From positions 5,235 through 69,234 of the forward strand of contig DASYZB010000010.1 of assembly GCA_035946615.1 (NCBI GenBank): a stretch of 64,000 bases of DNA, in the 5' to 3' direction. The notes beneath the pieces are model-generated. The model ran no database searches, was not told the origin of the DNA, and worked only from the letters and a program-made list of their open reading frames with translations. Made by a program: the position numbers and the translations under genes. Shown piece by piece: positions 1,816-57,048 of this stretch; position 1 is the first letter of the stretch; every line of letters begins with the position of its first letter. The DNA is from Verrucomicrobiia bacterium. Its GTDB lineage: Bacteria; Verrucomicrobiota; Verrucomicrobiia; Limisphaerales; UBA8199.

Positions 1816-4647
1816 CTAATGGAAACCCGTCGAGCTGCTCTCTTCTTCCCTCGGCGGGAATTCGAAATTGGCTTTGCCGGTTTCATCCATAACGAGATAG
1901 GCGCGGAAGGGCCGGCCCGTTTTGGAAATGAATTGGCTGAGGATGTCGGTTCTGCCTTCTACGAGGAGTTTGGCGGCTTGGGCGCGGTCGATGGGTTGCT
2001 GCAAGATGACTTTGCTTATTTTAAATTTACAGGGGCGCTTCTCAGCTTGCGACTTTTCGCAGAGATAAGCGGCCTCGGTTTCAAATACCTGTCCGCCGCA
2101 CTTGGGGCACTTGCCAATGGGTTCTTGCCCGGTGAAATCCAGTTTAGGCTGGGGCTCCTTGGGTTCGCTGGATTTTGCTGCGCCCCGTTTTGATTTGGCG
2201 CGCGGCTCGAATTCGAAACCGATCTCGCCGTCTTTCAGGGCGAGGAATGCCTTGAATGGCCGTCCCTTTTTGGAGATGAACTTGTCAAGGAGATCAGTCT
2301 TGCCTGTGGCCAGCAGCTTCTCCATTTGGCCCCTCTCGATGGGTTGTTGAAGGATAATCTTGCTCGCCCGTCGAAAATCGCATGTGTGGTTAGGGCCTAC
2401 GGTTCGCTCACAGACATAATGCATCGCGGTTTCGAATATCCGCTGCCCGCACTTGGGGCATTTGCCGACCGGCTCCTGCCCGCTAAAGTCCACTTCCTCG
2501 ATTTGGCCCTCGCCGTTGCGTTGTTCCTGTCCGAAATCCCATTCCATCTTGTTCTCGGCGTTCAAGCGCAGGACGGCCGCGAAGGGTCTGCCCATCCGGC
2601 TGCGGAACCCCTGCAATGGTCCGAGCTGCCGGTGCCGGATCAGTTGCTCGACCTCCTTGGCTTCAAAGAGACGGCCTTTGATGATTTTCCAAATGGAGAA
2701 CTCACATTTAACGCACTGAAAGGCCTTGTAGCGTTCGTGAACTTCTCCGCCGCATTGAGGACAAGGGACGTGCAGGACGCCGAAATCGCCGGGGATAGTG
2801 TCCAACTCGAACTTTTTGGCGCGCTCGACGATATGGCGGGTCATGTCGGTGATACCGGTCATGAACTCGACGCGGCTCTTTTGCCGGCGCTGGACCTGGC
2901 GCAACTGGAATTCCCAATCGCCAGTCAATTCGGGTTTGGTCAGTTCCGGGATGCCCAGGCCGTTGAGCAGTTCCATCAGTGCAAAGGCCTTGGCGGTGGC
3001 TTGCAGCTCTTTGCCCTGGCGCAGGAGGTACTGTTCATAGATCAGGCCCTCGATAGTGGCGGCGCGGGTGGCCGGCGTGCCCAACCCCTTTTCGCTCATA
3101 GCCTCGCGCAGCTCTTCATCCTCGACCAGTTTGCCAGCCCCTTCCATTGCGCCGAGCAGGGTGGCCTCGGTAAACCGGGGTGGTGGTTTGGTTTGATTAG
3201 CTTTGACTTCGACGTTGCTGGTTTGGACCTGCTCGCCGGGCTGCACAGGGGCCAGGCTCGGGGCGTCATCGCCTTGCGCCTCCCGTCCATAAACAGCCAG
3301 CCACCCCGGGTTCACGAGGACTTTGCCAACGCTCTTAAACGGCTCGGTCTCGACCCTCGTAATGCGGGTCGTTTCGAGAAACTCAGCAGCGGGATAAAAA
3401 ACAGCCAGGAAGCGCTTGGTGACCATGTCGTAGAGCTTCTGCTCTGGCTCGTTGAGGCCCTTGGGCGGCTCGGTGGTGGGGATAATCGCAAAGTGATCGG
3501 AGACCTTCGCATTATTGAAGATGCGCTTGTTGGGTTTGACCCAATTATTCTTGAGCACGGTTTCCGCCAGCGAGCCGTAAGATGTGCCCGAAAGCATACC
3601 GAGCGTTTTGCGGACCGTGTCCTGGTAGTCCTCGGGCAAGGCGCGGGAATCAGTTCTTGGATAGGTCAAAACCTTGTGCCGCTCGTAGAGGGCCTGAGCC
3701 AGCTTCAGAGTGTTGGAGGCGCTGAACCCGAACCGGCTATTGGCCTCACGCTGCAAACCGGTCAGATCGAACAGCAAGGGCGAAAGCTGCGTGCTGGGCT
3801 TGCTCTCCTCCGTTACGATGCCGGGTTTGCCCAAACATTTTTCGCGAATGGCTTCGGCCCGCTCGCGTTCCCAAAGACGCTCGGCCCGCAGCTCGGCGTC
3901 GGCATCCTTTTCAGCGCGGACAAATTTTTCGTCAAACCATTTGCCGGTGTATTCACCACCCTGTGCCTGGAAGGTGCCGAGCACCTCCCAATAATCGCGT
4001 GGAACGAATTTCCGGATGCGTTGCTCGCGTTCGACGACAATCGCCAGGGTAGGGGTCTGCACGCGGCCAACGGTGGTTTTGAAAAAGCCCCCTGATTTCG
4101 AGTTGAAGGCCGTCATGGCCCGGGTCCCGTTAATGCCAACCAGCCAGTCGGCTTCCGACCGGCTCACGGCGGCATCGGCCAAGGGCAGCATCTCCGCGTC
4201 CTCGCGCAAGGTGGAAAAGCCTTCGCGAATGGCCGCGGGAGTCATCGACTGGAGCCAAAGGCGTTTCACGGGCTGTTTGGCGTGCGTGTACCGGGCAATG
4301 TTGCGGAAAATCAATTCACCCTCGCGCCCGGCGTCACAGGCGTTAATGAGCAGGTCAACGTCCTTGCGCTTGATGAGCTTGCCCAACACTTTCAGGCGGG
4401 ACTGGCTCTTCTCGATGGGTTGCAGGTCGAAATGAGGGGGAATCACCGGCAGATGGGCAAAAGACCATTTGCCGCGGGCGGGTTCGACCCCTTCAGGGAC
4501 GATCAGTTCGAGCAAATGTCCGACCGCCGACGAGAGGACGTAATGCTCACTCTCGAAGTAATCTTCGTTTTTCTTAAAGCCACCCAGGGCCCGGGCAATG
4601 TCGGTCGCAACCGACGGCTTTTCGGCAATTATCAAGGCCTTACCCAT
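1816..4647 (-). CDS. topB: DNA topoisomerase III with three C-terminal zinc-ribbon/Topo-C repeats
   Basis: 943 aa with a TOPRIM N-terminus (MGKALIIAEKPSVATDIARALG) and a type IA core. The C-terminus carries three copies of CPxCG...GRPF repeat units. Confidence 0.9.
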   Translation of the reverse strand: MGKALIIAEKPSVATDIARALGGFKKNEDYFESEHYVLSSAVGHLLELIVPEGVEPARGKWSFAHLPVIPPHFDLQPIEKSQSRLKVLGKLIKRKDVDLLINACDAGREGELIFRNIARYTHAKQPVKRLWLQSMTPAAIREGFSTLREDAEMLPLADAAVSRSEADWLVGINGTRAMTAFNSKSGGFFKTTVGRVQTPTLAIVVEREQRIRKFVPRDYWEVLGTFQAQGGEYTGKWFDEKFVRAEKDADAELRAERLWERERAEAIREKCLGKPGIVTEESKPSTQLSPLLFDLTGLQREANSRFGFSASNTLKLAQALYERHKVLTYPRTDSRALPEDYQDTVRKTLGMLSGTSYGSLAETVLKNNWVKPNKRIFNNAKVSDHFAIIPTTEPPKGLNEPEQKLYDMVTKRFLAVFYPAAEFLETTRITRVETEPFKSVGKVLVNPGWLAVYGREAQGDDAPSLAPVQPGEQVQTSNVEVKANQTKPPPRFTEATLLGAMEGAGKLVEDEELREAMSEKGLGTPATRAATIEGLIYEQYLLRQGKELQATAKAFALMELLNGLGIPELTKPELTGDWEFQLRQVQRRQKSRVEFMTGITDMTRHIVERAKKFELDTIPGDFGVLHVPCPQCGGEVHERYKAFQCVKCEFSIWKIIKGRLFEAKEVEQLIRHRQLGPLQGFRSRMGRPFAAVLRLNAENKMEWDFGQEQRNGEGQIEEVDFSGQEPVGKCPKCGQRIFETAMHYVCERTVGPNHTCDFRRASKIILQQPIERGQMEKLLATGKTDLLDKFISKKGRPFKAFLALKDGEIGFEFEPRAKSKRGAAKSSEPKEPQPKLDFTGQEPIGKCPKCGGQVFETEAAYLCEKSQAEKRPCKFKISKVILQQPIDRAQAAKLLVEGRTDILSQFISKTGRPFRAYLVMDETGKANFEFPPREEESSSTGFH

Positions 4648-4736
4648 GTTTGTATAGACACTTACACGCGGTTAACCAAGGAAGCAACCGCCGTGCGAGT
4701 GGGTGGACAGTGGACTAACGTGGGGCGGGGGTCAAG

Positions 4737-6107
4737 TTACTTGCCGATACAGAACTGGCTGAAGATCATATCCAGGAGGTCTTCGGTGGTTGTTTTACCC
4801 ACGATTTCGCCAATAGCATTGACTGCAATGCGCAAATCCAGGGCGGCCAATTCAAGTGTTTGTTGGGCGCGGAGCGCATCCACCGTGCGGCGGATGGCCG
4901 CGCAGGCACGTTGGAGAGCCTCCTGGTGGCGCGAGTTGATCATGACCTCGAGCATCTCCGCCCGAATCTCACCTGACCAGGCCAGCGCATTGATTTGGTC
5001 CTTGAGCTTTTCAATGCCTTCTCCGGTCAGGCAGCACACATCAACGGCGTTTTGTGCCTCTTCCGGCGGAAAGAATAGACGCGAAGGCAGATCGCTCTTG
5101 TTGCGGATGAGGATACGTTTCTTTGCAGAGAATTCGTGCAAAAGGGTATCATCAGCAGCCGTGAGCGTCTCGGAGGCGTCAAATACATGGAGGATGAACT
5201 CGGCCGCTTCGAGTGATTGGCGGCTGCGCCGGATTCCCTCGAATTCGATTTCGTCGCGGGCTTCGCGCAGCCCGGCGGTATCAATGAAAACGACCGGGAC
5301 ACCCCGGATGTTGGCGGTCTCCTCGATGGTGTCGCGGGTCGTGCCGGGGATGGCCGAAACGATGGCCCGCTCGCGCCCGAGCAGTTGATTGAGCAAGCTG
5401 GATTTGCCGGCATTGGGCCGGCCAATAATAGCTGCGCGAATCCCGCGTCGCAGAATCTGGCCTTCGTTCGCCGTTTTGATCAGTTCCTCGACGAAGCCAA
5501 TGCCTCGTTCGAGGCGCTCGACTAATTGGTTGCGGGTATCCGGGGAAATATCTTCATCGGGGAAATCGATATGCGCCTCGATATGGGCCAGGATTTTGAG
5601 CATCTGCTCCCGAAGCTGGTTTATGCGTTGGGAAAGCTTGCCCGCAAGCTGCTCGTTAGCGGCGCGCAAGGCCAACTCTGTACGCGAATGAATCAGGTCA
5701 GCCACAGCCTCAGCCTGGGCCAAATCCAGCCGGCCATTCAGAAAGGCGCGCCGGGTGAATTCGCCGGGCTCGGCCAGGCGCGCGCCGCACGCCAGCACGG
5801 CGTCGAGGACCATTTTGGACGGAAGCACCCCGCCATGGCAGGTGATCTCGATGACATCCTCGCGTGTGAAAGTGCGCGGGGCTCGCATGACGGCGAGCAG
5901 GACCTCGTCCACTCGCCGGCCATTGCGGGTGATATGGCCGTATTGAATGGTATGGGTAGAAGCCGCGGAGGGCTTGAGCGATGACTTGCCGGCCGGGACA
6001 AAGCAGCGGTCTGCCACCTCGATTGCGAGCGGGCCGGACAAGCGGATAACGGCGAGCCCACCTTCGCCAAGCGGCGTGGCAATTGCCGCTATGGTGTCGT
6101 TATCCAT
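4737..6107 (-). CDS. mnmE: tRNA modification GTPase MnmE
   Basis: The N-terminus MDNDTIAAIATPLGEGGLAVIRLSG, the G domain GRPNAGKSSLLN and the C-terminal CIGK motif are all present. I trimmed the start to the internal ATG at 6107, because the longer track ORF overlaps the upstream gene. Confidence 0.9.
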   Translation of the reverse strand: MDNDTIAAIATPLGEGGLAVIRLSGPLAIEVADRCFVPAGKSSLKPSAASTHTIQYGHITRNGRRVDEVLLAVMRAPRTFTREDVIEITCHGGVLPSKMVLDAVLACGARLAEPGEFTRRAFLNGRLDLAQAEAVADLIHSRTELALRAANEQLAGKLSQRINQLREQMLKILAHIEAHIDFPDEDISPDTRNQLVERLERGIGFVEELIKTANEGQILRRGIRAAIIGRPNAGKSSLLNQLLGRERAIVSAIPGTTRDTIEETANIRGVPVVFIDTAGLREARDEIEFEGIRRSRQSLEAAEFILHVFDASETLTAADDTLLHEFSAKKRILIRNKSDLPSRLFFPPEEAQNAVDVCCLTGEGIEKLKDQINALAWSGEIRAEMLEVMINSRHQEALQRACAAIRRTVDALRAQQTLELAALDLRIAVNAIGEIVGKTTTEDLLDMIFSQFCIGK

Positions 6108-6108
6108 T

Positions 6109-6333
6109 TCAAGCGCCCCTTTGTTCCAGCAGGAGCCTGGCTTTCTGATAGCTTTTCTTGTGCAGGTAATGCACCAAATCCGGGTCCGAGCCTTTCGGCA
6201 ATTGCCGCGCCAGATCATCCAAACGCGCGAAGAGTGGGCGCAGGTCAGGCTTTGGATTGGCTGAAGCCATCGCATTCACCGCCCAATCGAGTTCGATAAG
6301 ACCATTCAGAATGTCTGTTTCAAGCGCAGTCAT
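6109..6333 (-). CDS. Hypothetical small protein (74 aa)
   Basis: The ORF ends 1 nt before the mnmE start and has a normal amino-acid composition. I recognise no family. Confidence 0.4.
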   Translation of the reverse strand: MTALETDILNGLIELDWAVNAMASANPKPDLRPLFARLDDLARQLPKGSDPDLVHYLHKKSYQKARLLLEQRGA

Positions 6334-9991: not shown

Positions 9992-11667
9992 ATGAATACT
10001 CCTCTCACACCTCAGTCCCTCATCCAACAGATCCTTCAAATCCAACGGATGGAGCACGGCTCCCTCTCCATCATCCGCCAGGGACCCAGCGGTCCCTACT
10101 ACAACCTCAACTCCTGGGAAAACGGCAAAAACTGCTGCCGCTATCTGCCACAAGACAAGGTTCCGGAGGTCCAACAGGCCATTGAGGGTTACCAGCAATA
10201 CCAGCAACTCACCGAGCAATACGCTCAGCAGATCATCGAGCAAACCCGCGCCCAGTTGCATATCGGCGTAAAAAAAAAGCTCCAGCCCAACCCGCAGAGA
10301 TCCCGCCCCAAATCCGCCTCGCCCAAGACCAGGAAATCGAGCACTTGATGGCCCGTTTCCAGGCTACCGAACCCAACGGTGTCGCCGTCCAGAAATTGGA
10401 GGGGCTAGTACGGACGGCCGTTTTTCGCTCGGCCAGGGACGTGGTCGCTTATCTGTTGCAGCAAGCTGCCGACCGCATTGACGCGGCTTACCAGCCCAAA
10501 CCAGGCTGGCAGCGCAAAGCAAAAGCGCAGCTCACGCTCGACTGCATCTTCGGGTTTTTCACTTTGGAACGGGACTATTACTATCATCCGGGCAAGCAGC
10601 AGGGGCACTATCCGGCTGATGCCGCCTTGGGGCTGGAGGGGAGCTCTACCAGGAGCTCTACCCCGGCCTTGGCGCGGTTGGTGTGCTTAGAGGGGGCCGA
10701 TGAAGCCAGCTACCAAAAGGCCCAGGAACATTTGAAAGAGACCGGCGGTATTAAGGTGTCGGCCCGGCAGATCCAACGGTTGGTACAAGGCGTGGGTCCC
10801 GACGCCCAAATCTGGCAAGAGCGCGAGGCATTGGTACCACTGCCGGGCACCCAACCGGCGTCCATTATGTATCTCAGCGGCGACGCCTCGGGCGTAACCC
10901 ATGCGCCCGGAGGAACTGGAGGGCCGGGAAGGCAAAGGACCCGACGGCAAGGCCAAGACCCGGATGGCCAACCTGGGTTGCGTTTTCACGCAGCATCAAG
11001 TCGATGACCAAGGCCATCCCATACGCGATCCCAACTCAACCACCTACGTCTCCACCATGGGACCGCTCGAGGAGTTCGGCCCGCTGTTGCGGCAGGAGGC
11101 CATCCGGGGACTGTCCTTGGCCGTGTTCATGGTAATGCTCATCGATGGCGCCGAAGGGTTGGCCAACATGGGGCGACTCTGTTTTCCCGCCGCTCTTCAA
11201 ATCGTGGACTTCTATCACGCGATGGAGCACGCCCGCAAGGTGCTGGCGGCCCTGCTGGGCAGCAAGGAACATCCCGATTTCAAGAAACGACTCGGCCGTT
11301 GGGCTCGACAATTACTCCGCGATAAAGTCCAACATCTCATCGACGCCGCGCGCAAGGAATGCGCCGGCACCGCCCGAGCCGAGGCGGTAGAAAAGGAACT
11401 TGGTTATTTCGTTCGCAACGTGGCGCGCATGCAGTATGGCACTTTCCGCAGCCGGGGTTTCTTCATCGGTTCGGGAGTCATCGAAGCCGGCTGCAAGACG
11501 ATCATCGGCACTCGGTGCAAACAGTCAGGCATGTTCTGGGGCGTACCTGGAGCCCAAAACATCCTGGCTCTGCGCTGTATCAGCGCCAGCGCCGACTCTC
11601 TGACTTTTGGAAAACGCGACTCAACGCCCACGCTGCCCGCAATGATTGCCTGGCCCTTGCCGCCTAA
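9992..11667 (+). pseudogene. ISKra4-like transposase with a DUF6788-like N-terminal part, split over at least four frames
   Basis: The pieces are 9992..10348, 10345..11007, 10901..~11590 and ~11590..11667. Motifs present are SGDASGV/MRPEE (DGTGVPM-like), KTRMANLGCVFTQ, VDFYHAMEH, CKQSGMFW and the C-terminal RLSDFWKTR. The inferred natural stop is at 11665-11667, 2 nt before the right IR. Confidence 0.8.
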
Positions 11668-11669
11668 CC

Positions 11670-11690
11670 GAAGAAATCTGTCCCACGCAC
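11670..11690 (-). repeat. IS right inverted repeat
   Basis: It is the reverse complement of 9911..9931 (21/21). Confidence 0.9.
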
Positions 11691-11699
11691 AACCTGCGC
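11691..11699. repeat. Target-site duplication, right copy (AACCTGCGC)
   Basis: Identical to 9902..9910. Confidence 0.8.
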
Positions 11700-11742
11700 C
11701 ATCGGCTTCTCAAGATGTTTGCAATTCCCACAAACTGCGCAA

Positions 11743-12174
11743 CTATGGCGGTTCCATGGCCCACCGCTCCTTTTGAGGGCGCTTTTGAATCTCGTTCCAC
11801 ACCTCCTTGTAGAATCCTTTTGGCATTTTATAGTGCGCTATGCTTCCCTGGCTGTCGATCACGACATCGAGGCACTCGTTGCAGAACTGGACCTCAATTT
11901 TGCCGGCCGGCGTTCGGAAGATGGCGTCGTGAGAGTGCAAGTCCCACCTTCTCCCAACTGGGTCCGCCTCGAGATGAACGCTTCGCGAGATGCGCGCGAC
12001 GTCTGCCGCGTTGGTAATGGTGAAGCTCACCTGGTTGGTTGTGCCCAGGTCCTCCTGGACCAGGGTTATCGATGTGGCGTTTGTAAAAATCCAGGAGCGA
12101 TGCGGCAGCTCGCTGTGCGGCTCTGGCGCCGGTTCTGCCGGCGCGGCGCGCGCCGGGTCATCTTTTTTCTTTTT
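11743..12174 (-). pseudogene. C-terminal domain of the upstream membrane-anchored protein, displaced into another frame
   Basis: The frame is open from 12174 with no ATG/GTG/TTG until 12030. It reads as a PAEPAPEP linker followed by a beta-rich domain. It overlaps the 3' end of 12158..12961 inside the A6GA6 run. Confidence 0.45.
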
Positions 12175-29894: not shown

Positions 29895-31100
29895 TCACCG
29901 ATTGAACCACCCCAACTCCTCTTTGTGCGTGAGGTAAAGCAATCCCAGAATCCGCATGCCCACAGCGACGAGATAAAGGTACACCAGGGCCGAAATCAAT
30001 CCGGGCACAAACGGGACCGGAATGGCCGATACCAGTGCCCCTTCGACAAACCAGTGGAGCAAAAAAACGAGCACGAAGGCCGTCGCCGCCGCAAGATAAG
30101 GCAGGGGCACACGCAGAATCGACCAGGCCAGAGCGATGGGGTTCAACGCACCGAGGTGATCAAACATGGCCAGCGCCAGGGTCCCCATCGGAGCCAGCAG
30201 CATGCCGAGGCCAAGGGCGGCGAGATAAGCAATGGCGGCTTGCGTTTGGGTTCCGGGCCGCCAAACACCAATCAGAAACGATGGCCCGAAATAAAGCGCC
30301 AAAAGGGCCAGAAGCTGCAGGTAAGGCATGAGGATGTCGTCCTTCCAGTCGGTGAAATTCGGCCAGTCAGGCAGTTCTTTTTTCCCCTCGGCCGTCGAGG
30401 TGATGATGCTTTTGGCATAGCTGAACATGTAGCCTGTCACAATCAGCCCGATCAACGGCATCCATCCCAGCACGAAAAAGAACAGCGTGCCGACGACCAG
30501 CATGAGGACGCCACTGCCCTGGAATGGATAGAGCAACGAGCCGGGCAACAACGCGATAAAACCTTTTGGGGCTTTTACTTCTTCGCGCTGGATCTCGACG
30601 GGCTGGCATTCCGAACCGCACCGGCGGCAGAAGTGCCTGGTGATACCGTCAGCCAGCCGTGTTGTGACGCATAGCTCGCAAACGGCTTGGGCGCACCTGG
30701 GACACAAGTATCTCCCGAGCGCTGCCGGGTGGGATTTGCAGAACCTGTTCGTTGCGAGAGCCGCGCTAATCCGCCGGGGCAGGGGGGGCTCTTTGGTTTC
30801 TGTCTGGTCCGGCTCATCGGATTCATACCGCAGTTCCACCTCACCCAATCGGATGCGTTGGCCCGGCTTGAGCCTCGCTTGCTCGATAAGTTCCCCATCG
30901 ACAAACGTGCCTGCCGTCGATCCCAAGTCCTTCAGCCAGGCGGCGCTATCCGACATTGTCACCTGGCAATGGGAGCAGGACACCGAGGGGTGCTCGATGG
31001 GAACCTCGTTTCCCTCGCCACGTCCGAGGGAGATTGTTCCGGGGTGCAGTTCAATCGACCAGGCATCTGGCGTGTCCGGGTTGACAATAAGCCGCGGCAT
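29895..31100 (-). CDS. FHA-domain protein with a zinc-ribbon/B-box-like segment and a polytopic membrane C-terminus
   Basis: The N-terminal FHA domain reads ISLGRGEGNEVPIEHPSVSCSHCQV...GSTAGTFVDG. Cys clusters CKSHP..CPRC..CELC..CRRCG follow, then 6-7 hydrophobic helices. Confidence 0.75.
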   Translation of the reverse strand: MPRLIVNPDTPDAWSIELHPGTISLGRGEGNEVPIEHPSVSCSHCQVTMSDSAAWLKDLGSTAGTFVDGELIEQARLKPGQRIRLGEVELRYESDEPDQTETKEPPLPRRISAALATNRFCKSHPAALGRYLCPRCAQAVCELCVTTRLADGITRHFCRRCGSECQPVEIQREEVKAPKGFIALLPGSLLYPFQGSGVLMLVVGTLFFFVLGWMPLIGLIVTGYMFSYAKSIITSTAEGKKELPDWPNFTDWKDDILMPYLQLLALLALYFGPSFLIGVWRPGTQTQAAIAYLAALGLGMLLAPMGTLALAMFDHLGALNPIALAWSILRVPLPYLAAATAFVLVFLLHWFVEGALVSAIPVPFVPGLISALVYLYLVAVGMRILGLLYLTHKEELGWFNR

Positions 31101-31329
31101 GACGCTTCCGTGCTGTCGAGAATACCGGGGCCGCCCCGTTCCGCCAACGACAATTGCCGCAATTCGTTGCTAATTGCTAAGAGATCTAAGAGATGGGCTT
31201 GAAAGCGGCCATACTGTAAGAATGAATTTGTGCCTGGGATGAGGAAACAATAAAACTGGGGGACAGAATCATTCGGAATGGAGGGTTTACAGAAACAGCA
31301 AAGGCTCACCATGCGCCAATCCTGGCGCA

Positions 31330-31357
31330 ATTGAACATAACATACATTGTGCGAAGC
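31330..31357 (-). other. dif: dif-like XerC/XerD recombination site
   Basis: The minus strand reads GCTTCGCACAA-TGTATG-TTATGTTCAAT. A hand alignment to the E. coli dif core gives 23/28 identities (8/11, 5/6, 10/11). Confidence 0.7.
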
Positions 31358-31395: not shown

Positions 31396-32262
31396 ATGAG
31401 CAAACCAAACCTCATCCAATTTGGGACTGCCGTGGGCTTTTACCGCAATCCCCGAGTCCGCGAACTCTATGACCGGCTCAAAAAAGAGATACCGAGGAAG
31501 GTAGATTTTGCCGAGTTGGCGCCGATGCTTTTTCAGGTGGTTATGTCCGCTGCTGCCGAGAACCAGATCGACGGTGACTTTGCAAGCTACAACGCCAACC
31601 GCTGGTGCGAGATTTTCCTGGCGAACCATGTGCAAGTAACGCTCAAGGAAGCTTCGCTGATCCGGGTTTTGTTTAAAGACATCGGCTTATTCGAGGGGGA
31701 CAAAATCCGTTCCTGGGCCAAGTTCAACCGGCACCTGGCCGACTACGAGGGTATCGTCAAAGCTAAGAGACGAGCAGGCAAACTTTCGGCAAAGAGGCGC
31801 GAACAAGACGCCCGATCAGCCCTCAAAGGAGGTCGAAAAAACGACGAAATTTCCGCTTCGGAACCCGAAAAAAGCGCTTCCGAAAATGGTTCTGCGAGCA
31901 AGCAACTTTGGCTCATCGAAAAGGGTCTGGAAAAGGCCAAAGGCAAAGCCCGCCGGGAGCTGCTGGTCAAGAAGGAACGTCTCCTGAGCGGTGAGCTTGG
32001 CGTTGACCTCTCCGAGCCAGCGCCGGCAGCTCGCCCGCCGGCGCCCAAGGCGCAAAAGGAAACTCCGGGCGGATGGCAGCGGACGCTGCTCAGCTCTGCG
32101 CGGCAACTGCTGGCCGATTCACCGGAGCTGCTCACCGAGAAGATGGTTATCGCCCTGGCCAACGCGCGCGCCAAATTCCCGGAGGACGTTTACCAGAGAT
32201 TTCGCAAGGTCCTTGACGGCCTTGCCGAAAAAGAAGCCGGAGACAATCCCGTCCCCGGCTAA
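31396..32262 (+). CDS. Hypothetical protein, possibly replisome-organizer/DnaD-like (288 aa)
   Basis: The N-terminal ~130 aa end in LIRVLFKDIGLFEGDKIRSWAKFNRH, which resembles the winged-helix end of phage replisome-organizer N-domains. A Lys/Arg/Glu-rich linker and a helical C-terminus follow. Confidence 0.45.
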   Translation: MSKPNLIQFGTAVGFYRNPRVRELYDRLKKEIPRKVDFAELAPMLFQVVMSAAAENQIDGDFASYNANRWCEIFLANHVQVTLKEASLIRVLFKDIGLFEGDKIRSWAKFNRHLADYEGIVKAKRRAGKLSAKRREQDARSALKGGRKNDEISASEPEKSASENGSASKQLWLIEKGLEKAKGKARRELLVKKERLLSGELGVDLSEPAPAARPPAPKAQKETPGGWQRTLLSSARQLLADSPELLTEKMVIALANARAKFPEDVYQRFRKVLDGLAEKEAGDNPVPG

Positions 32263-34198: not shown

Positions 34199-34477
34199 CG
34201 CAGATCGGCGTTACGGCCCTGGCTCGATGAGTCACAACCTGAGCCAAGCTGGTTCCTGCTCGAGAACGTGCCCGGGGTTCCGGACATTCACATTTCGGGC
34301 TACCAGGTCCAGCGGTTCAACTTGTTCGCCCATGAGTTTGGTTTAAGACAAAGCCGCAACCGCTCGTTCCAGTTTGGCAGCCGTGACGGCCGTCCACTTC
34401 AGCGGAATTGCCGTCCAATCGAGCCTGGCCAAAAAGGCTTGAAAAAGGAAGGCGCTAGTAGGAAAGTTGCACCATGA
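34199..34477 (+). pseudogene. DNA (cytosine-5)-methyltransferase remnant (ENV and QxRxR motifs only)
   Basis: The reading is PSWFLLENVPGV...FGLRQSRNRSFQFG. Motif I, the target-recognition domain and motifs IX/X are absent. Confidence 0.6.
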
Positions 34478-34734
34478 GCGCCACAGTTTTACGCGAAAAG
34501 CGCCAGACCACCCTGCCGGTCGAGGTGGTTGAAGCAGCCGGCCTGAAACCAAACGACCAAGTGGACTGGCGTTTCCAGGACGGCGAGATACGCGGACGGA
34601 AGCTCGAGCCGGTCAGGCCCATCCCCAGGCTTAAACCGCTCCGAGTAAAGGGCCGGCTGCGCCCTCCTGATGGCTTCAAGCCATCCCGCCAGATCATTGC
34701 GGCCGCCGTTCGCGCAGACCGGGACGATAGATGA
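34474..34734 (+). CDS. vapB: AbrB/SpoVT-type antitoxin (VapB-like)
   Basis: KRQTTLPVEVVEAAGLKPNDQVDW is a swapped-hairpin AbrB motif. It overlaps the PIN gene as ATGA. Confidence 0.75.
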   Translation: MSATVLREKRQTTLPVEVVEAAGLKPNDQVDWRFQDGEIRGRKLEPVRPIPRLKPLRVKGRLRPPDGFKPSRQIIAAAVRADRDDR

Positions 34735-35126
34735 GGCGTTACTGGGACAGCTCCGCGTTGCTGGACGCCTTTTTCGAGTCCAGGATTGAGTCCTTAGTCC
34801 GGGAACCGGACCAATGGACAAGGCCCCACACCCTTGCTGAGATGTTTTCGGCCCTTACGGGGGGACGGTTAGGCGGACAATTCCATCCAGCCGACGCGTC
34901 CGCCATCGTCCGCGAGTTGACGGAGACCATGAATTTTGTCGAGCTGGACGCCAAAGAGGTTCAAGCGGCACTGGATTCGGCGGACAAGCACGGCGTCCGG
35001 GGAGGGAACGTCCATGATTGGATGCACGCCACGGCTGCAAAGAAAGCCGGCGCTATCGTCCTGCTAACCGACAATTCCACGGACTTCCAGAATTTGGCGG
35101 ACGGATTCGCCGTCGAGGCTCCTTAA
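34731..35126 (+). CDS. vapC: PIN-domain toxin (VapC-like)
   Basis: Acidic residues are in PIN positions (YWDSSAL, AEMF, LLTDNSTDF). It has the classic two-gene arrangement. Confidence 0.8.
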   Translation: MRRYWDSSALLDAFFESRIESLVREPDQWTRPHTLAEMFSALTGGRLGGQFHPADASAIVRELTETMNFVELDAKEVQAALDSADKHGVRGGNVHDWMHATAAKKAGAIVLLTDNSTDFQNLADGFAVEAP

Positions 35127-35813: not shown

Positions 35814-36263
35814 TTATTTTTCTTTCTCTTTCTGTGGTTCTTGTTTTGGAGGAGGCTGGAGATTCTGCAAAGCAATCAGCTTATCGAGCCGGCGCAAGAG
35901 CTTGACGTGGTGTCCGCCGATGAGCGCCAGCGAGCTGACCAGGACAGCCACGTCTTTATACTCGGGACTGATGCCAGTCGCGTTGAGCAGTTTGGCCGCC
36001 ACACGCGGCGCTGAAATCTCGAGGCCGCGCTTGCCCACAGTCGGCCATTTAGCCGAATCCTGGATTTCCTGGACGATCTCTCCGGGCAGCCTGGCCTTTT
36101 CCGCACGGCTGCTAACCTGTAGGGCCATTCCCTCTTCCAACGCCGGGATCAACTGTTCGCAGATCGGTTTGAGTTCCTCCGGGTCCCAAGGTACAGGCGG
36201 AGGACTTTGAGGAAAAGCCACACCGCCCGCACCAACAGGCGCCGCTTGAGGCGAGTTAGCCAC
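35814..36263 (-). CDS. Hypothetical protein (149 aa, GTG start), upstream of the ATPase
   Basis: Pro-rich N-terminus, helical core and a Lys/Glu/Pro tail. It is co-oriented with the ATPase. Confidence 0.5.
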   Translation of the reverse strand: MANSPQAAPVGAGGVAFPQSPPPVPWDPEELKPICEQLIPALEEGMALQVSSRAEKARLPGEIVQEIQDSAKWPTVGKRGLEISAPRVAAKLLNATGISPEYKDVAVLVSSLALIGGHHVKLLRRLDKLIALQNLQPPPKQEPQKEKEK

Positions 36264-36457
36264 AGCCGCGGCGCTCGGCAGTGGCGGAGGTTCTGGGGAA
36301 CGCTGCTTGCGCTTGCGCTGCGCATCTTTCTTCCGGTCGGCTTCGATGGCCTCGGGTGATCCTGGGACAAGGCCGTCCAGGCGTTTGCGTCCGCCTCGCA
36401 GGCCTCCATGCTTTGTAGCTGCTTCGCCAGCAGAAAGCGGAGCGGAAAAAACTCGAA

Positions 36458-37036
36458 GTGAGTTTGTATTGCAACGGGATTTACATTACGAACAATCCCA
36501 CTTGGGCGGTTCAAATCTTCAACACGGGCGACACCACGCCGCCCCGTTTCAAAATCGCCAGCAATGGGTCCGCCTCGCAGCACTTTTGGCAGTTTCAAAA
36601 GGACCTGGAAAGCAACGGGAGTCAGTTTGAGTTCTACTCGAGCACCAATGGGGGCAGCAACGTGAACCTCACTCTGACGCTTGACCCATTCAGCGGCAAT
36701 GAAAATCTGGTGTTCGGAAAGTACGTCGGCAACCTGGCCGGGGCCACAAATGTAAGCTCTACGGTGCTTGCCAGCTCGGCCGATGTGGCTCTTAAGGGCT
36801 TCGAGGAATACGTCTTCCTGGCCGGCAACCATACTTGCACCCTCGGCAGCGCTGCCACCAACGCGGGACATTCGGTCTCGATCACCTGCACCAGCGCCGG
36901 CACGAATGCGATTCTGCCTATTTTGAGCCAAACGATCACCGGTGCCAGCAAGTGGACTAACGGAGCCATTTACACCGTCACCAAGCTCATCAGCGACGGG
37001 TCCAACTGGCAGATAGCCGGCTCTCGAGGAAACTGA
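36458..37036 (+). CDS. Beta-rich Ser/Thr/Asn/Gly-rich structural-type protein (192 aa, GTG start)
   Basis: No helices are evident. The C-terminus TKLISDGSNWQIAG is reminiscent of phage fibre/adsorption protein ends. Confidence 0.5.
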   Translation: MSLYCNGIYITNNPTWAVQIFNTGDTTPPRFKIASNGSASQHFWQFQKDLESNGSQFEFYSSTNGGSNVNLTLTLDPFSGNENLVFGKYVGNLAGATNVSSTVLASSADVALKGFEEYVFLAGNHTCTLGSAATNAGHSVSITCTSAGTNAILPILSQTITGASKWTNGAIYTVTKLISDGSNWQIAGSRGN

Positions 37037-37038
37037 TT

Positions 37039-37461
37039 ATGGCCTGGTTCGGACTCGATAAACTTTTTTTGGGGTACGACCTGACTGCCCAGCAGCAGCA
37101 GAGCAACGCCCTCGACGCGCAGATCAACAACGTCAACCAGGCGCTGCAAACGGCCGGTTACGTCCCGCCAGGCTATGCCGAACAGGCCGCTGCCGACATT
37201 GCGGCGGGGGACAACAGCACGGGCGCGGGCGACGTGGTTCAAAGCGTGGATTCCGAATTCGTGGCCGGGGCTAAGCAGGGCCTTGACAACGTGCTGACCG
37301 CGCCCGGCAAAGTCGTTGGGGCAGTCGGTTCGGGGGCCTCGACTCTCTTAGGCGGCATAATCAAAGCAATTCCCTGGTGGGTCTGGCTCGGAGCCGCCGC
37401 GGCCCTGTTCGTCTGGATGGGCGGCCTCGAGCTGCTGAAAGGAAGGTTCGCGCGAAAATGA
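37039..37461 (+). CDS. Gly/Ala-rich protein with a C-terminal TM helix and basic tail (140 aa)
   Basis: The C-terminus reads ...AIPWWVWLGAAAALFVWMGGLELLKGRFARK. Confidence 0.55.
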   Translation: MAWFGLDKLFLGYDLTAQQQQSNALDAQINNVNQALQTAGYVPPGYAEQAAADIAAGDNSTGAGDVVQSVDSEFVAGAKQGLDNVLTAPGKVVGAVGSGASTLLGGIIKAIPWWVWLGAAAALFVWMGGLELLKGRFARK

Positions 37462-38958: not shown

Positions 38959-39095
38959 GCTTTCTACGCTCAGCACTGAGCCTGGTTACTCAGGCCGTTA
39001 AGGACCTGTTCTCGGGCAAGATTAACGCCCTCGGGCTTGCCATGCTGGCTCTGGCGGGCTTTGTCGGTTGGTGGCTCTGGAAGAAGCTCAAATGA
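38955..39095 (+). CDS. 46-aa single-TM protein with a basic C-terminus (coat-protein-like; below the track cut-off)
   Basis: My own translation is MSFLRSALSLVTQAVKDLFSGKINALGLAMLALAGFVGWWLWKKLK. Both ends have ATGA junctions. Confidence 0.45.
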   Translation: MSFLRSALSLVTQAVKDLFSGKINALGLAMLALAGFVGWWLWKKLK

Positions 39096-39253
39096 ACCAA
39101 CGCCAAGCCACCGCTTCGATCATCATGCTGGTGCTCATCCTGCTGGGCATGGCCGGCCTCTATTACGGCCTCTGGAAGGCTTACCAGCTTTACCAGCAAT
39201 ACCAGGCACAATACCAAAAAGGCGGAATCCTCGGTCTGCTAGGTGGAAAATGA
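39092..39253 (+). CDS. 53-aa single-TM protein
   Basis: MNQRQATASIIMLVLILLGMAGLYYGLWKAYQLYQQYQAQYQKGGILGLLGGK. The start is ATGA-coupled. Confidence 0.45.
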   Translation: MNQRQATASIIMLVLILLGMAGLYYGLWKAYQLYQQYQAQYQKGGILGLLGGK

Positions 39254-39635
39254 AGTCCAAATTGCGCAAAGCCAACAGGTCCAAACGGCGTCCTGGGCGG
39301 TCACGGCGGGGAACGGCCATGATAAGCGTCCGGTTCCGGGAGCCCTTGAGGTTTCTCAAAACCCTGTTGCATTAAAGCTGCCTTGCGTCCTGCCGGTCTC
39401 CGCCGCCGATGCCCTTGCCTGGGCCGAAGGCCGGCTGGATGATCTGGACCTTGTGCTGAATGCCAAATTGCGCCCGGAAGCCGTCTTTGTCGTGAACCTT
39501 CCCAACCTTCGCTCTTACCGTCAAACGCTGCGCCTAGTGGCCAATTGGCGCGAGCGCGGGGCAGTCTGCATGATAGCCCGAACCGGAAGCGATCTGGTGG
39601 AAGACGGTCACTGCGAAATTCATAGGGCTTCGTGA
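39243..39635 (+). CDS. Hypothetical protein (130 aa, GTG start); competes with a 41-aa Arg/Lys-rich ORF at 39250..39375
   Basis: The C-terminal two thirds have a normal protein-like composition. The true start is unclear. Confidence 0.3.
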   Translation: MENEVQIAQSQQVQTASWAVTAGNGHDKRPVPGALEVSQNPVALKLPCVLPVSAADALAWAEGRLDDLDLVLNAKLRPEAVFVVNLPNLRSYRQTLRLVANWRERGAVCMIARTGSDLVEDGHCEIHRAS

Positions 39636-39754: not shown

Positions 39755-39769
39755 GCACCTAAAAGGTGC
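39755..39769. promoter_or_regulatory. Palindrome GCACCT-AAA-AGGTGC upstream of the RHH antitoxin gene (candidate operator)
   Basis: A perfect 6-3-6 inverted repeat lies 12 nt before the ATG at 39781. Confidence 0.4.
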
Positions 39770-39780
39770 AAATTGAACCC

Positions 39781-40023
39781 ATGAAGCGTTCAGTTGACTT
39801 GGATGAAGACCTTGCCGCTGAGGTGGAAAAAGCGGCGGAGCTGGTCAGGGAAAAGCCGGCTACTGTAATTCGGCTTGCTATCCGTGCCGGGCTGCCAAGC
39901 GTTACGAGCCGATTCCAAGCTCCAAGGCCTGAGGGCTATTTCGCGGACGCTTACAAGGACGCTGCCCGGGCCGAGAGTGAGAACAAGATGCTATCTGCTC
40001 TGATCCAGAAACCGGAGCGATGA
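39781..40023 (+). CDS. Ribbon-helix-helix (CopG-like) antitoxin
   Basis: MKRSVDLDEDLAAEVEKAAELVREKPATVIRLAIRAGL. It overlaps the toxin gene as ATGA. Confidence 0.6.
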   Translation: MKRSVDLDEDLAAEVEKAAELVREKPATVIRLAIRAGLPSVTSRFQAPRPEGYFADAYKDAARAESENKMLSALIQKPER

Positions 40024-40346
40024 GGATTTGGCAATGGGAAATCTGGAAAGCGAAGGTTCCAGGATTCGCCGTTGATCATTGGTTTGTCCTGCTGAGCGGA
40101 CAGGAGCGGCTCGATAACCCGAAGCATCAGGCCTGCAATGGTCTAATCTGTTACACGCTGCGAGGACCGCCAATTTCCACAGATGTCCGGCTTGACGCGG
40201 CGGACGGGTTTAGAGCCGCTACCGCTTGCCAATGCGACTTTCTTTGGGTGCTTGATAAGCGGACGCTGCACAGCCAAACTGGGACGGTTTCCTGGGAGCG
40301 CCAGCAACAAATCCGCAGTAAAGTCCGCGAAATCTTGCGTCTTTAA
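40020..40346 (+). CDS. MazF/PemK-like toxin
   Basis: 108 aa. WEIWKAKVPG...HWFVLLS...CQCDFLWVLDKRTL..TGTVS matches the family's strand pattern and its position after an RHH gene. Confidence 0.55.
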   Translation: MRIWQWEIWKAKVPGFAVDHWFVLLSGQERLDNPKHQACNGLICYTLRGPPISTDVRLDAADGFRAATACQCDFLWVLDKRTLHSQTGTVSWERQQQIRSKVREILRL

Positions 40347-40380
40347 AACATCATTGGGACCCGTGTGAACGCGCTGCTCG

Positions 40381-40869
40381 TCATTGGCTCAATCCATTTG
40401 TTGTTTGTTGTTTGCCGTGACCGCCTTCACGCTGGCTCAGGATCCGCCACCCATGTGTACCATACATTATTTTCAGAACCCTGATCGGGTCGGCGTTCGG
40501 AGAGTAGTCCTCTCCCCAAATAGCTAAAGTAGAATAGCGCCAGTTTCCACCGATGTACTTGATGCCAACGGTGCCTTTATCCAGAACGATCTCGTATGGT
40601 CTCTTCCCAGCCAAAGCAAACTCGCCTAGAATGTTGGTATCGGCGATAGACTCCTCCCCTGCCCCAGGGCCGCCCCGTTGCCGCATCAGACGATCACACC
40701 GGGATGCGAACTGATCCAACTCGCTGCGTGGAAGGGCTTCAACTGCGTCACAGAAAGCGCGACTTTTGGCGACCCGGTACCGAAGAACCCAAAATGGCAG
40801 GGCGACCACCAGGAGCAAAGCCCCGATTAGGAGGAAAACAACCCACGCCCGTGTCGTCATAGCTCCCAC
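40381..40869 (-). CDS. Hypothetical membrane-anchored protein (162 aa)
   Basis: N-terminal TM helix AWVVFLLIGALLLVVALPFWVL. I recognise no family. Confidence 0.5.
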   Translation of the reverse strand: MGAMTTRAWVVFLLIGALLLVVALPFWVLRYRVAKSRAFCDAVEALPRSELDQFASRCDRLMRQRGGPGAGEESIADTNILGEFALAGKRPYEIVLDKGTVGIKYIGGNWRYSTLAIWGEDYSPNADPIRVLKIMYGTHGWRILSQREGGHGKQQTTNGLSQ

Positions 40870-40940
40870 CGCTGCCCGGTACCCTGGCTGAGTGATTGAG
40901 GCATATGTTGAGTGTCCTTCCGAAAGGGCTTGGGGAGCCT

Positions 40941-41065
40941 ATGATGCAGGCCGTTGGCCTGCAAACAGAATTATAGCCATTCGTACCCAGGACGTTGGCC
41001 CTGGGCCGGTATGAGGGACGCCTTTGGCGTCCTGCGTCGCTACGCGACGCAACCTCGATTTGTTG
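40941..41065 (+). repeat. Hairpin-rich intergenic repeat, family B (copy 2)
   Basis: It contains AGGCCGTTGGCCT, CCCAGG..CCTGGG and GGTATGAGGGACGCCTTTGGCGTCC. Confidence 0.6.
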
Positions 41066-41338
41066 GCTCTTCTTCCGTAGGCCGAGGCCCACAGCCACCG
41101 GCATGGCACCGCTACGCGGTGCGAGGCGCCGGCACAACTTCCTTTTGCATCAGGTCCGTCGCCAGCGAAGGGCAAAAAAATTGACACCATTCTCCTCATC
41201 CTCGATTTTCCAGGGGCTTCGAGGACGAGGACGAAAGGAAGAGCCGACTATTTTCAAAACACGCCCTAAAGGTCCCTAAAGGTCCGCACAACCCACAATT
41301 TCCATTTGCACTGGAGAGATTACTGAGGCAAACTTAAA

Positions 41339-48560: not shown

Positions 48561-48700
48561 TATAAAGCGGGCCGTTGGCCTGCAACCATCCACCTGCACC
48601 GCGTTTCCCACGGCGTTGCCGTGGGCTGGTATGAGGGACGTCTTTGGCGTCGTCGGCTCTGACGCGCCTACGTTCGCAATCGGCGTCAGAGCCGTAGAGC
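48561..48700 (+). repeat. Family B repeat (copy 4)
   Basis: GGCCGTTGGCCTGCAACCATCCACCTGCAC...GCTGGTATGAGGGACGTCTTTGGCGTC is the closest relative of copy 1. Confidence 0.6.
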
Positions 48701-55725: not shown

Positions 55726-56832
55726 CTATCTCAGCCCCACGGCCCGGGCCAATTCGCGGTGAATTTTGCCGACCCGCTCGACCTGTCCCTTGGCGGCGAA
55801 GCGTTCATAGAAACCTTCGCTGCGGAAATCGCGCGCGCGTTCAGACCAAGAGGCCAAGCGCTCGCGCCAGCGCTCGACACGCGCTTCAGCCGGCTCGGCA
55901 TCCTGTGTTGCCAAATCGGCGCAGACACGCAGCAGCGCCTTGAGTGTGACCGGTTTGGTCACCATGTAGTTATCGTTGCCCCAGGCCTCGCCAAAAACCT
56001 GCGACGCTGCTTTCAGGAAATCGCGCGCCATACCATAATACCGCTCGGCAACACGCCGATCGGCGCCTTCCTTTTCCAGTTTTGCCCAAGCCTGTTTGAC
56101 CCAGCGATGGACTTCGTTAAACAACTCGGCCTGGAGAATCCATTTCTCCTGCTTGCTGCGTCCCCCAAGGCGATTAATGCGATAGCGCAGCGGACTGTCG
56201 CTTTCGCTATAAAGCATCTCGACAATCCGCGCCGCAAAGCGCCGGTCCGGTTCGGCCCAGGACACACGCTCATACAAGTCAACCAAATGACTCTTGTTAA
56301 TGCGCGTCGGGGTGGAGTTGATGATGACAAACATCTCAGTGGCAAAGTCATCGCTACGTCCATCGAAAATGACGCACGGGACAAAAATGGATTTGGCTTC
56401 CTCCGGGTGGGTGCGTTCGTAAAACTGCAACGCCGCCAGGCGGTGCTGGCCATCGATGATCAGGAATTTTTCCTCCGGCTCCTGCAGATGGCCGATGGTC
56501 TCCTGGCCATCCAAGGATTGGAAGCGAAGCCGCTGCGGAGTAAATAATAGAACGGTGCCCGGGATCGGCGGTTGCGTGATTGCCGTCTCGTAGAAATTGC
56601 GAATCAGTTTGACCTTCGAACGCGACAGCGACCGTTGGAAGGCCTTTTCGCTCCTCTCGATGCGGGCGATGAATTGTGCCACATCGTCTTCCGGGGCTAT
56701 CTCCTCTGGCCGGATGTCCTCCCCTTCACCGTAAAAGCGGCTGATGAAACGGACTTTGGCCAGCAGCCCTTCCGAAGGATAAGCCGCAAAGTAAAACATC
56801 GCATCCTTCTGTCGAATTTGCGTCGCAATCAT
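55726..56832 (-). CDS. DGQHR-domain protein (DndB-like), solitary
   Basis: Contains FLIIDGQHRLAAL. 368 aa from the internal ATG. Confidence 0.7.
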   Translation of the reverse strand: MIATQIRQKDAMFYFAAYPSEGLLAKVRFISRFYGEGEDIRPEEIAPEDDVAQFIARIERSEKAFQRSLSRSKVKLIRNFYETAITQPPIPGTVLLFTPQRLRFQSLDGQETIGHLQEPEEKFLIIDGQHRLAALQFYERTHPEEAKSIFVPCVIFDGRSDDFATEMFVIINSTPTRINKSHLVDLYERVSWAEPDRRFAARIVEMLYSESDSPLRYRINRLGGRSKQEKWILQAELFNEVHRWVKQAWAKLEKEGADRRVAERYYGMARDFLKAASQVFGEAWGNDNYMVTKPVTLKALLRVCADLATQDAEPAEARVERWRERLASWSERARDFRSEGFYERFAAKGQVERVGKIHRELARAVGLR

Positions 56833-57048
56833 AGTCACCCAGGCCTTTCGTTCGGTTTTGAAACGTCCCTGCCTCTTGTTGGCCAATACGTACACCGCCC
56901 CGGAAACAAAAACAAGGCGGAAGCAAACCGAAAAGCCGCACCCGTTCACCCGTATTCTGTACGTTGAACGTTGAGCATTATTGGCCTTGCAGAAGGCAAC
57001 ATTGTGCCGGAGTGTCTAGCAAAGCGCTTTAACCCAATCTAACGGCTC

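Follow-up and report, generated by a model that had tools for sequence, protein, structure and literature searches.

The DNA examined here, referred to as the window, is a stretch of 64,000 nucleotides from contig DASYZB010000010.1 of a Verrucomicrobiia bacterium (assembly GCA_035946615.1), and the features of interest are a 28-bp sequence resembling dif, the chromosomal site recombined by the host proteins XerC and XerD, and an island of genes that begins directly beside it. The site occupies a 295-bp non-coding gap, richer in AT than the 58% GC genome, between a host gene for an FHA-domain protein and the gene that opens the island (31396-32262, plus strand). From 31357 to 31330 the minus strand reads GCTTCGCACAATGTATGTTATGTTCAAT, which displays the 11-6-11 architecture of dif with an inner palindrome CACAA/TTATG. 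The initial annotation had read the 28-mer as GCTTCGCACAA-TGTATG-TTATGTTCAAT and placed it in this gap, both of which the letters bear out, and re-scoring against the E. coli dif (GGTGCGCATAATGTATATTATGTTAAAT) reproduces its count of 23/28, made up of 8/11 in the XerC arm, 5/6 in the central region and 10/11 in the XerD arm. No other position in the window reaches 18/28 (the runner-up has 17/28), and 200 mononucleotide shuffles of the window yielded top scores of 16-20/28; the earlier statement that such identity is not expected by chance in 64 kb therefore holds. The 28-mer is also single in the window when up to three mismatches are allowed, the expected count from dinucleotide shuffles being 0.

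Comparisons with predicted and presumed dif sites point in the same direction. Kono et al. 2011 (PMC3025954) predicted dif in all three of the Verrucomicrobia that they covered, and their supplement gives ACTTCGCACAATATATGTTATGTAAAAT for Methylacidiphilum infernorum, located, on that study's relative scale, about 4.5 percentage points from where the GC skew shifts, and ACTTCGCATAATATATGTAATGCCAAAT for Akkermansia muciniphila. The window site agrees with the former at 24/28 positions, including 10/11 of the XerC arm, and with the latter at 21/28. A scan of 185,579 species genomes, the source genome not among them, with the 24-mer core CGCANAATGTATNTTATGTTCAAT (two free positions) matched 16 contigs, all proteobacterial and each with one match; the window site is 25-26/28 to single-copy proteobacterial sites and 26/28 to that of Pseudomonas sp. 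GV085, which is taken as the dif of that strain. In its 11-6-11 layout, its XerC arm (xCTTCGCACAA) and its XerD arm TTATGTTCAAT of proteobacterial type, the site thus resembles the chromosomal dif of Verrucomicrobia and Proteobacteria (PMC3025954), from which it differs in that its XerC arm and central region are common to, and possibly contributed by, a prophage attachment site (attP). The layout and the match to the M. infernorum prediction uphold its initial identification as a dif-type XerC/XerD site.

The adjoining genes, which extend from 31358 to about 39.7-40.9 kb, had been labelled an ORFan island, a fair first description of open reading frames (ORFs) nearly devoid of Pfam or PHROG matches. 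Their relationships point to a more specific identity, namely a defective PM2-like prophage. The island encodes an ATPase of the FtsK/HerA superfamily (Table 1), for which 306 homologues with E <= 0.001 were found in metagenomes, the best 120 of the 306 being 60-81% identical and nearly all about 207 aa long; the elements that carry such homologues are small, about 15 kb. The window protein is 62-71% identical to those of the related loci L018, L022, L023, L025, L026 and L030 and 47% to that of L031. In L026/L027 and L030 a gene for a major capsid protein (MCP) with the Pfam domains P2_N and P2_C, which represent the PM2 double-jelly-roll (DJR) capsid, lies beside the ATPase operon and diverges from it. 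The window hence shows the packaging-ATPase trait of the Vinavirales without the capsid trait: the P2 MCP of the relatives has no tblastn, Pfam or PHROG match in it, and this copy is consequently regarded as a defective remnant rather than as a complete member. No Phage_integrase or other recombinase domain was detected in the ORFs of the island. Judged by its genes, the island is a predicted degraded prophage of the Vinavirales (PM2/corticovirus-like) that lacks both a capsid gene and an integrase. Prophages of this order have previously been reported in Verrucomicrobia genomes (PMC9502842).

Two other identities were rejected, that of a filamentous phage because Zot and rolling-circle replication genes are absent and the ATPase groups with DJR elements that carry an MCP, and that of a tRNA-targeting island because the window has no tRNA genes. 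Sequence searches of the PDB with the ATPase gave nothing significant, scans of a viral contig collection and of GenBank phages with the ATPase and with the 288-aa protein encoded next to the site recovered no relatives, and 15-mer scans of the viral contig collection returned chance-level matches, none of them accompanied by homologues of either gene.

Attachment junctions in related elements

Related loci were collected through the 288-aa end gene of the prophage and through the ATPase. In every locus that includes upstream DNA, a dif-like 28-mer is situated 39-83 bp upstream of the start codon of the end gene. Nine independent elements are represented (the window, L026, L031, L034, L035, L036, L037, L038 and L040), from differing hosts and samples, and in all nine the site has the same orientation, with the XerC arm proximal to the end gene and TTCGCACAA invariant. 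The initial annotation had treated the site and the island as mere neighbours, and thereby missed that the former is a prophage junction whose XerC arm and central region also occur in the phage attP.

The nine elements differ in what follows the central region. A canonical XerD arm of the form TTAT[GA]TT[CT]A[ACG]T is present in six (the window, L026, L034, L036, L037 and L038), whose junctions read ...TGTATG-TTATGTTCAAT in the window, AATTCGCACAA-TGTTAG-TTATATTCACT in L026, ACTTCGCACAA-TGTTTG-TTATATTCAAT in L034, ...TGTTAG-TTATATTTAGT in L036 and ...TATTTG-TTATATTTAAT in both L037 and L038. Where the flank is long enough, the DNA beyond the XerD arm of these integrated forms is unrelated host DNA: serS in L037, repeats resembling repetitive extragenic palindromic (REP) elements with an unannotated ORF without Pfam match in L026, and the FHA gene in the window. 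The distal arm is degenerate in the other three, being TTGTGCGCCCG in L031, TTCGTGCGACT in L035 and CGAAGTACAGC in L040. In L031 (L031/L032) and L035 it is followed directly by the other end of the phage, which comprises a basic ORF of about 55 aa and an 80-aa gene and is homologous to positions 1-660 of L026; L040 is tied to this end solely by a short conserved motif past the arm, CTGATGGCTTAGC, read by eye. Going by the order of segments on their contigs, L031/L032, L035 and L040 would be in the attP configuration.

Both junctions are available in one intact relative, L044/L026. Its left junction reads AATTCGCACAATGTTAG|TGCGCTTCAGC and its right junction AATTCGCACAATGTTAG|TTATATTCACT, such that a 17-bp direct repeat consisting of the XerC arm and the central region brackets 14.9 kb. 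The left flank has the gene order tilS-ftsH-rpe-pgm-lepA-lepB-lepB, followed by the junction and then the phage, and host DNA resumes past the right junction. This repeat pattern is as predicted by recombination of dif with a half-site attP. None of the 31 genes of L044/L026 has a recombinase domain. A tyrosine integrase is encoded by the sister elements L030 and L025, neither of which has a dif-like site.

Further features were observed around the attP-type core. It is bracketed by a 13-15-bp inverted repeat, CAGCTAA(A/G)CCATC ... GATGGCTTA(A/G)CTG, found in L035 (about 880-960), in L040, and in L044 (9585-9600) together with L026 (14800-14815), and the stop codon of the conserved, very basic ORF of about 55 aa (MNTK..AALLGARGGK..) falls inside one of the repeat arms. 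In L040 the core is the palindrome ACTTCGCA-CAATGTT-TGCGAAGT. The inverted repeat may be a binding site for an accessory protein or may form a cruciform. Operator-like arrays are present upstream of the 80-aa end gene, with TGCACCTGCA in 4-5 copies and TTAC in about seven (L026 255-330; L035 610-680), which suggests that the 80-aa protein is a lysogeny repressor. A dif-like 28-mer, CTTTCGCACAATGTTAGTTATGTTCACA, was also noted at 291-318 of L135 (IMGVR_UViG_3300032516_000014), 290 bp into the locus as fetched, on a 76-kb contig unrelated to this phage family; it may be a host dif that was swept into a provirus call, or belong to another integrative mobile element that exploits Xer (IMEX).

Polarity around the site, mode of integration and alternatives

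Skew and the polarity of motifs of the FtsK-orienting polar sequence (KOPS) type were read within the window, which forms part of a 72.7-kb source contig. All 11 copies of GGGNAGGG in the flanks converge on the site, five on the plus strand and none on the minus strand to its left, none and six, respectively, to its right. The best convergent split lies between 30777 and 34177 (permutation P = 0.006 over any split point); a check of KOPS-like polarity, which the initial annotation had proposed, thus finds the strand switch in an interval that contains the site. The related motif GGCAGGG is convergent in 20 of 23 instances (P = 0.004). This bias is not just a coding-strand effect, since it has the same sign in plus-strand and in minus-strand genes taken separately, GGCAGG in plus-strand genes being distributed 8:2 left of the site and 4:14 right of it (Fisher P = 0.005). 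In the host flanks of the other integrated copies four of five GGGNAGGG motifs point at the site. A blind k-mer scan ranked GGCAGGG among the top four convergent exact k-mers; after correction for about 25,000 tests no k-mer remains significant.

On the whole, the site is best read as a host dif that was regenerated at the junction of an IMEX prophage. That it is both of dif type and a prophage junction is probable, and we consider it likely that the prophage concerned is a decayed, integrase-less PM2-like element, probably inserted via the host XerC and XerD. According to the proposed mechanism, the phage attP would consist of a host-like XerC arm and central region (xxTTCGCACAA-TNTNNG) followed by a degenerate, non-XerD distal arm, framed in many copies by the 13-15-bp inverted repeat, with no integrase encoded by the phage. 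Host XerC and XerD, to which we attribute the catalysis, would recombine attP with the chromosomal dif in such a way that the prophage is placed on the XerC-arm side and a hybrid site is left at the far junction. The end-gene junction would then be a complete 11-6-11 dif whose XerD arm and flank come from the host. The identical 17 bp at the two junctions of L044/L026 support strand exchange on the XerC side, with the second exchange perhaps completed by replication or by an activating factor; we infer the order of the exchanges and the standing of the site as the only active dif of the replicon. In the window, the prophage has since lost its capsid module, most of its methylase gene and its far junction and is thereby fixed in place, no longer able to excise. 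A regenerated dif could still act in dimer resolution in the cell, and the site would for this reason still probably mark the terminus region.

The initial annotation had gone as far as calling the 28-mer a probable chromosome terminus marker. The convergence of the KOPS-type motifs favors this, and given this polarity the site probably marks the dif/terminus locus; the expected change of sign in local GC and GC3 (third codon position) skew was not seen. It is reasonably probable that the site is the active dif of the replicon.

Several observations weigh against this interpretation, in its terminus part or as a whole. The motif GGGNAGGG is the KOPS of E. coli and may not be the FtsK-orienting motif of Verrucomicrobia, and the motif counts are low. 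On either flank raw GC skew is positive (+0.041 and +0.028), without a sign change at the site, and a gene-wise regression of GC3 skew puts the unidirectional term at +0.068 (95% CI 0.02-0.11) and the convergent one at -0.011. The genes diverge from the site rather than converge on it, and mnmE lies 25 kb away; this gene is origin-proximal in many bacteria and hence unexpected near a terminus. No xerC, xerD or ftsK was found among the scanned ORFs of the window. A search of the window with thresholds of at least 16/28 and at least 13/17 and with loose regular expressions revealed no second dif-like site or half-site near the far end of the island, so that the IMEX architecture has both junctions complete in the relative L044/L026 and the canonical junction alone in the window. 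Generic searches for direct and inverted repeats in the island and in L018 gave chance-level pairs only. In L042, an 87%-identical relative reached through its FHA orthologue and with 84% nucleotide identity to the window in the FHA gene, homology stops at 31156 of the window, and the site and the island are replaced by a REP element together with a B12-binding gene, with no dif. An empty site, sought via the FHA orthologues of close relatives, was not recovered, and those more distant relatives whose DNA was available are non-syntenic.

One alternative is that the junction lies at a secondary dif-mimic rather than at an active dif, or was recombined by an unrecognised phage recombinase, in which case it would say nothing about the terminus. 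Skews that do not flip, genes that diverge and an 84%-identical relative with no dif beside the FHA gene are all compatible with it, as are the use of their own tyrosine integrase by the sister elements L030 and L025 and the several phage genes, including the 288-aa one beside the site, that have no known function. We regard it as unlikely, given that a canonical XerD arm stands exactly at the crossover in every integrated copy, in three unrelated chromosomal contexts, and that the 31 genes of the intact relative include no recombinase domain. The switch of KOPS-type polarity at the site, with the correct orientation of four of five motifs in other hosts, and the 10/11 identity of the XerC arm to the M. 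infernorum prediction also speak against a mimic.

A plain host dif, with the island as unrelated cargo in a plastic terminus region, would fit the closeness of the sequence to predicted verrucomicrobial and to proteobacterial dif, the convergent KOPS-type motifs and the single junction of the window. What makes this explanation very improbable is the recurrence, across nine independent elements, of this type of 28-mer with the same orientation and at 39-83 bp from the same phage end gene, along with the 17-bp repeat of XerC arm and central region that brackets the intact relative, since chance adjacency cannot explain either. Chance resemblance to dif in an AT-rich, divergent intergenic region of a 58% GC genome is refuted, to the point of being negligible, by a score of 23/28 against at most 20/28 in 200 shuffles, by conservation in related loci and by the 24/28 match to the independent, phylum-specific prediction from M. 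infernorum.

Relation to known Xer-exploiting elements

The interpretation as an IMEX junction draws on several known components, namely the dif predictions for Verrucomicrobia, the dif-integrating DJR prophages of Gammaproteobacteria and the presence of Vinavirales in Verrucomicrobia. What appears modestly new is a verrucomicrobial phage lineage that behaves as an IMEX with an attP mimicking the XerC arm and the central region. The attP sites of TLCphi-type phages likewise are not known to have a proper XerD arm.

The DJR prophages of Vibrio have been divided into int-type and dif-type forms, of which the latter have a 28-bp or 17-bp dif-like attP and are counted as IMEXs (PMC12715192). The dif-type PM2-like IMEXs of Vibrio and Pseudoalteromonas (PMC12715192, PMC11630473, PMC9966536) share with the elements described here a small size of 10-15 kb, their nature as prophages of tailless membrane phages and the lack of an integrase. 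They likewise integrate at dif via a dif-like attP, possibly a 17-bp half-site, with one junction regenerating a canonical dif, and they have integrase-encoding sister lineages with the same core genes, which is exactly the pattern shown by L044/L026. The present elements differ in residing in soil and freshwater Verrucomicrobia rather than in Gammaproteobacteria, and in an attP that mimics the XerC arm and central region, whereas the 17-mer of PM2 consists of the XerD arm and central region. Judged by position, their terminal genes (the 288-aa gene at one end, the 80-aa gene and the basic ORF of about 55 aa at the other) replace the rstR/P16 and XafT/P15 pair; no XafT homologue was identified in these elements, and no sequence comparison with P15 or P16 was made. 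The window copy further departs from the Vibrio-type IMEXs in being defective, with no MCP and a single junction.

The Vinavirales prophages previously described from Verrucomicrobia (Yutin et al. 2022, PMC9502842) resemble the present ones in being divergent, possibly degenerate and PM2-like, with an MCP and an FtsK-like ATPase and without P15 and P16. The text of that paper contains neither XerC nor integrase, and the dif-junction evidence addresses this gap by offering an integration mechanism for Verrucomicrobia-associated Vinavirales that is absent from its discussion. A further parallel is provided by CTXphi, VGJphi and TLCphi of Vibrio cholerae (PMC4246890, PMC9226527), which insert at dif by using the host XerC and XerD and encode no integrase; these are single-stranded DNA inoviruses and belong to a virus realm unrelated to that of the double-stranded DNA DJR phages. 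Unlike in the filamentous IMEXs of V. cholerae, the distal attP arm here frequently repeats the XerC arm in inverted, imperfect form, an example being CGCACAA-TGTTTG-TTGTGCG of L031.

A broader proposal, the merits of which we regard as evenly balanced, is that the verrucomicrobial Vinavirales prophages represent an undescribed IMEX lineage outside Proteobacteria, characterized by an attP in which the host XerC arm and central region are joined to a degenerate or inverted XerC-like arm within a frame of 13-15-bp inverted repeats. Under this proposal, their junctions could reveal the dif and the termini of uncultured soil Verrucomicrobia, and the 288-aa or the 55-aa protein may be a Xer-activating or directionality factor comparable to XafT. 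For the annotation of the window, our interpretation implies that the site be recorded as dif and prophage junction (attL/attR) and the adjoining 8-10 kb as a defective Vinavirales IMEX prophage in place of an anonymous ORFan island. It would extend the range of Xer-exploiting tailless phages from the Vibrio-type Gammaproteobacteria to Verrucomicrobia, and the end gene with its adjoining 28-mer could serve as a practical marker for dif and the terminus in fragmentary metagenome-assembled genomes with weak GC skew. Current understanding is not overturned by the finding.

Gene content of the prophage and its host flanks

The positions of the site, the KOPS-type motifs and the principal genes are given in Table 1.

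Table 1. Features at and around the 28-bp dif-type site (positions in the window)
Feature	Position	Strand	Remarks
GGGNAGGG left of the site	1807, 4047, 25607, 28424, 30777	all plus	pointing to the site
Host FHA-domain gene	29895..31100	minus	on the XerD-arm side; Pfam FHA 6.6e-16 and Yop-YscD_cpl
28-bp dif-type site	31330..31357	minus	XerC arm 31357-31347 GCTTCGCACAA; central region 31346-31341 TGTATG; XerD arm 31340-31330 TTATGTTCAAT
288-aa end gene of the prophage	31396..32262	plus	46-57% identity to the end genes of L026 and L031-L041; always adjoins the XerC arm
Remnant of cytosine DNA methylase gene, about 56 codons	34232..34399	plus	79-88% aa identity to an internal part of the 336-aa DNA_methylase of L026 and L031
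MazE/AbrB-type antitoxin and PIN-domain toxin	34474..34734 and 34731..35126	plus	Pfam MazE_antitoxin 4e-6, PIN 1e-6
FtsK/HerA-superfamily packaging ATPase, analogous to PM2 P9	35123..35749	minus	phrog_2666 ('terminase large subunit') 7e-24; weak FtsK_SpoIIIE
Homologue of the 239-aa gene lying upstream of the ATPase, apparently N-terminally truncated	35814..36434	minus	tblastn 36-42% to L026 8920-9639, L030 and L031
192-aa beta-rich protein	36458..37036	plus	no family match; sits where relatives have the MCP or a variable gene
140-aa membrane protein, virion module	37039..37461	plus	71% to L031 2796-3215, 40% to L018
61-aa transmembrane protein and 130-aa gene	39068..39253 and 39243..39635	plus	last genes common with relatives (tblastn, gene maps)
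Uncertain right edge of the island	39766..40869		RHH-like and PemK-like pair 39766-40346 (plus); 162-aa membrane protein 40381-40869 (minus)
GGGNAGGG inside the island	34177, 37851, 40657; 34999	minus; plus	first three minus, 34999 plus
GGGNAGGG right of the site	42291, 44059, 47704, 47709, 60455, 60885	all minus	pointing to the site

The 288-aa end protein has no match in Pfam, PHROG or, in a profile search, the PDB. The PIN toxin is 65-76% identical to the PIN genes of L026 and L031, and the MazE/PIN pair is convergent with the ATPase gene in the window as it is in the relatives. Beyond the ATPase, the frame of the truncated homologue of the 239-aa gene is open to 36470, with no start codon upstream of 36263, and the deletion by which the capsid gene was lost probably has its breakpoint here. 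From its position, the neighbouring 192-aa protein is possibly a spike or host-recognition protein. Toward the far end of the island is the 130-aa gene, whose homologues in L025 and L030 are near neighbours of the phage integrase gene.

The right-edge pair resembles a toxin-antitoxin system, with an RHH-like protein of 85 aa and a second protein of 108 aa, Pfam being blank for both; the product of 40020-40346 is 29-31% identical to PemK toxins encoded beside the ATPase in L018 and L025. A remnant of the same prophage family, about 3.5 kb in extent, was noted at 5786-9053 of L022, where nothing is left but a 255-aa ATPase, two small ORFs and a toxin-antitoxin pair of PIN type; on its 321-kb contig the remnant has ispH on one side and a CitMHS transporter gene on the other, and it has no dif-like site. 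Decayed copies of this family thus seem to be common.

The rest of the window is ordinary chromosome, with topB, mnmE, adk and genes for a GH38 mannosidase, ABC transporters, Fur and a P-type ATPase, and in public records both the FHA orthologues and the homologues of the prophage ATPase carry Verrucomicrobia or Verrucomicrobiae names. Beyond the right edge of the island, REP-like host repeats begin at about 40920 and are followed by the host ZIP and Fur genes from 41363 (Pfam ZIP, FUR). These repeats are nested palindromes, GACGCCAAAGGCGTC ... CCCAGGCCAACGGCCTGGG, that recur in intergenic DNA at 40920-41280 and 48606-48651, and the same repeat stands beside the FHA gene of L042 (436-481). In L026 the host side of the dif site carries palindromic repeats of a different kind. 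Of the more distant genes, topB (topoisomerase III, 943 aa, with C-terminal Toprim_Crpt repeats) and mnmE occupy 1816-6275, some 25-30 kb from the dif-type site, and a fragment of an ISKra4-family transposase is found at 10901-11776 (NCBIfam 5.8e-45, only the C-terminal half of the model being matched). On the other side of the island, a DndB-like or GmrSD_N-like gene at 55726-56949 (Pfam DndB 6e-10) possibly belongs to a DNA-modification or defence locus.

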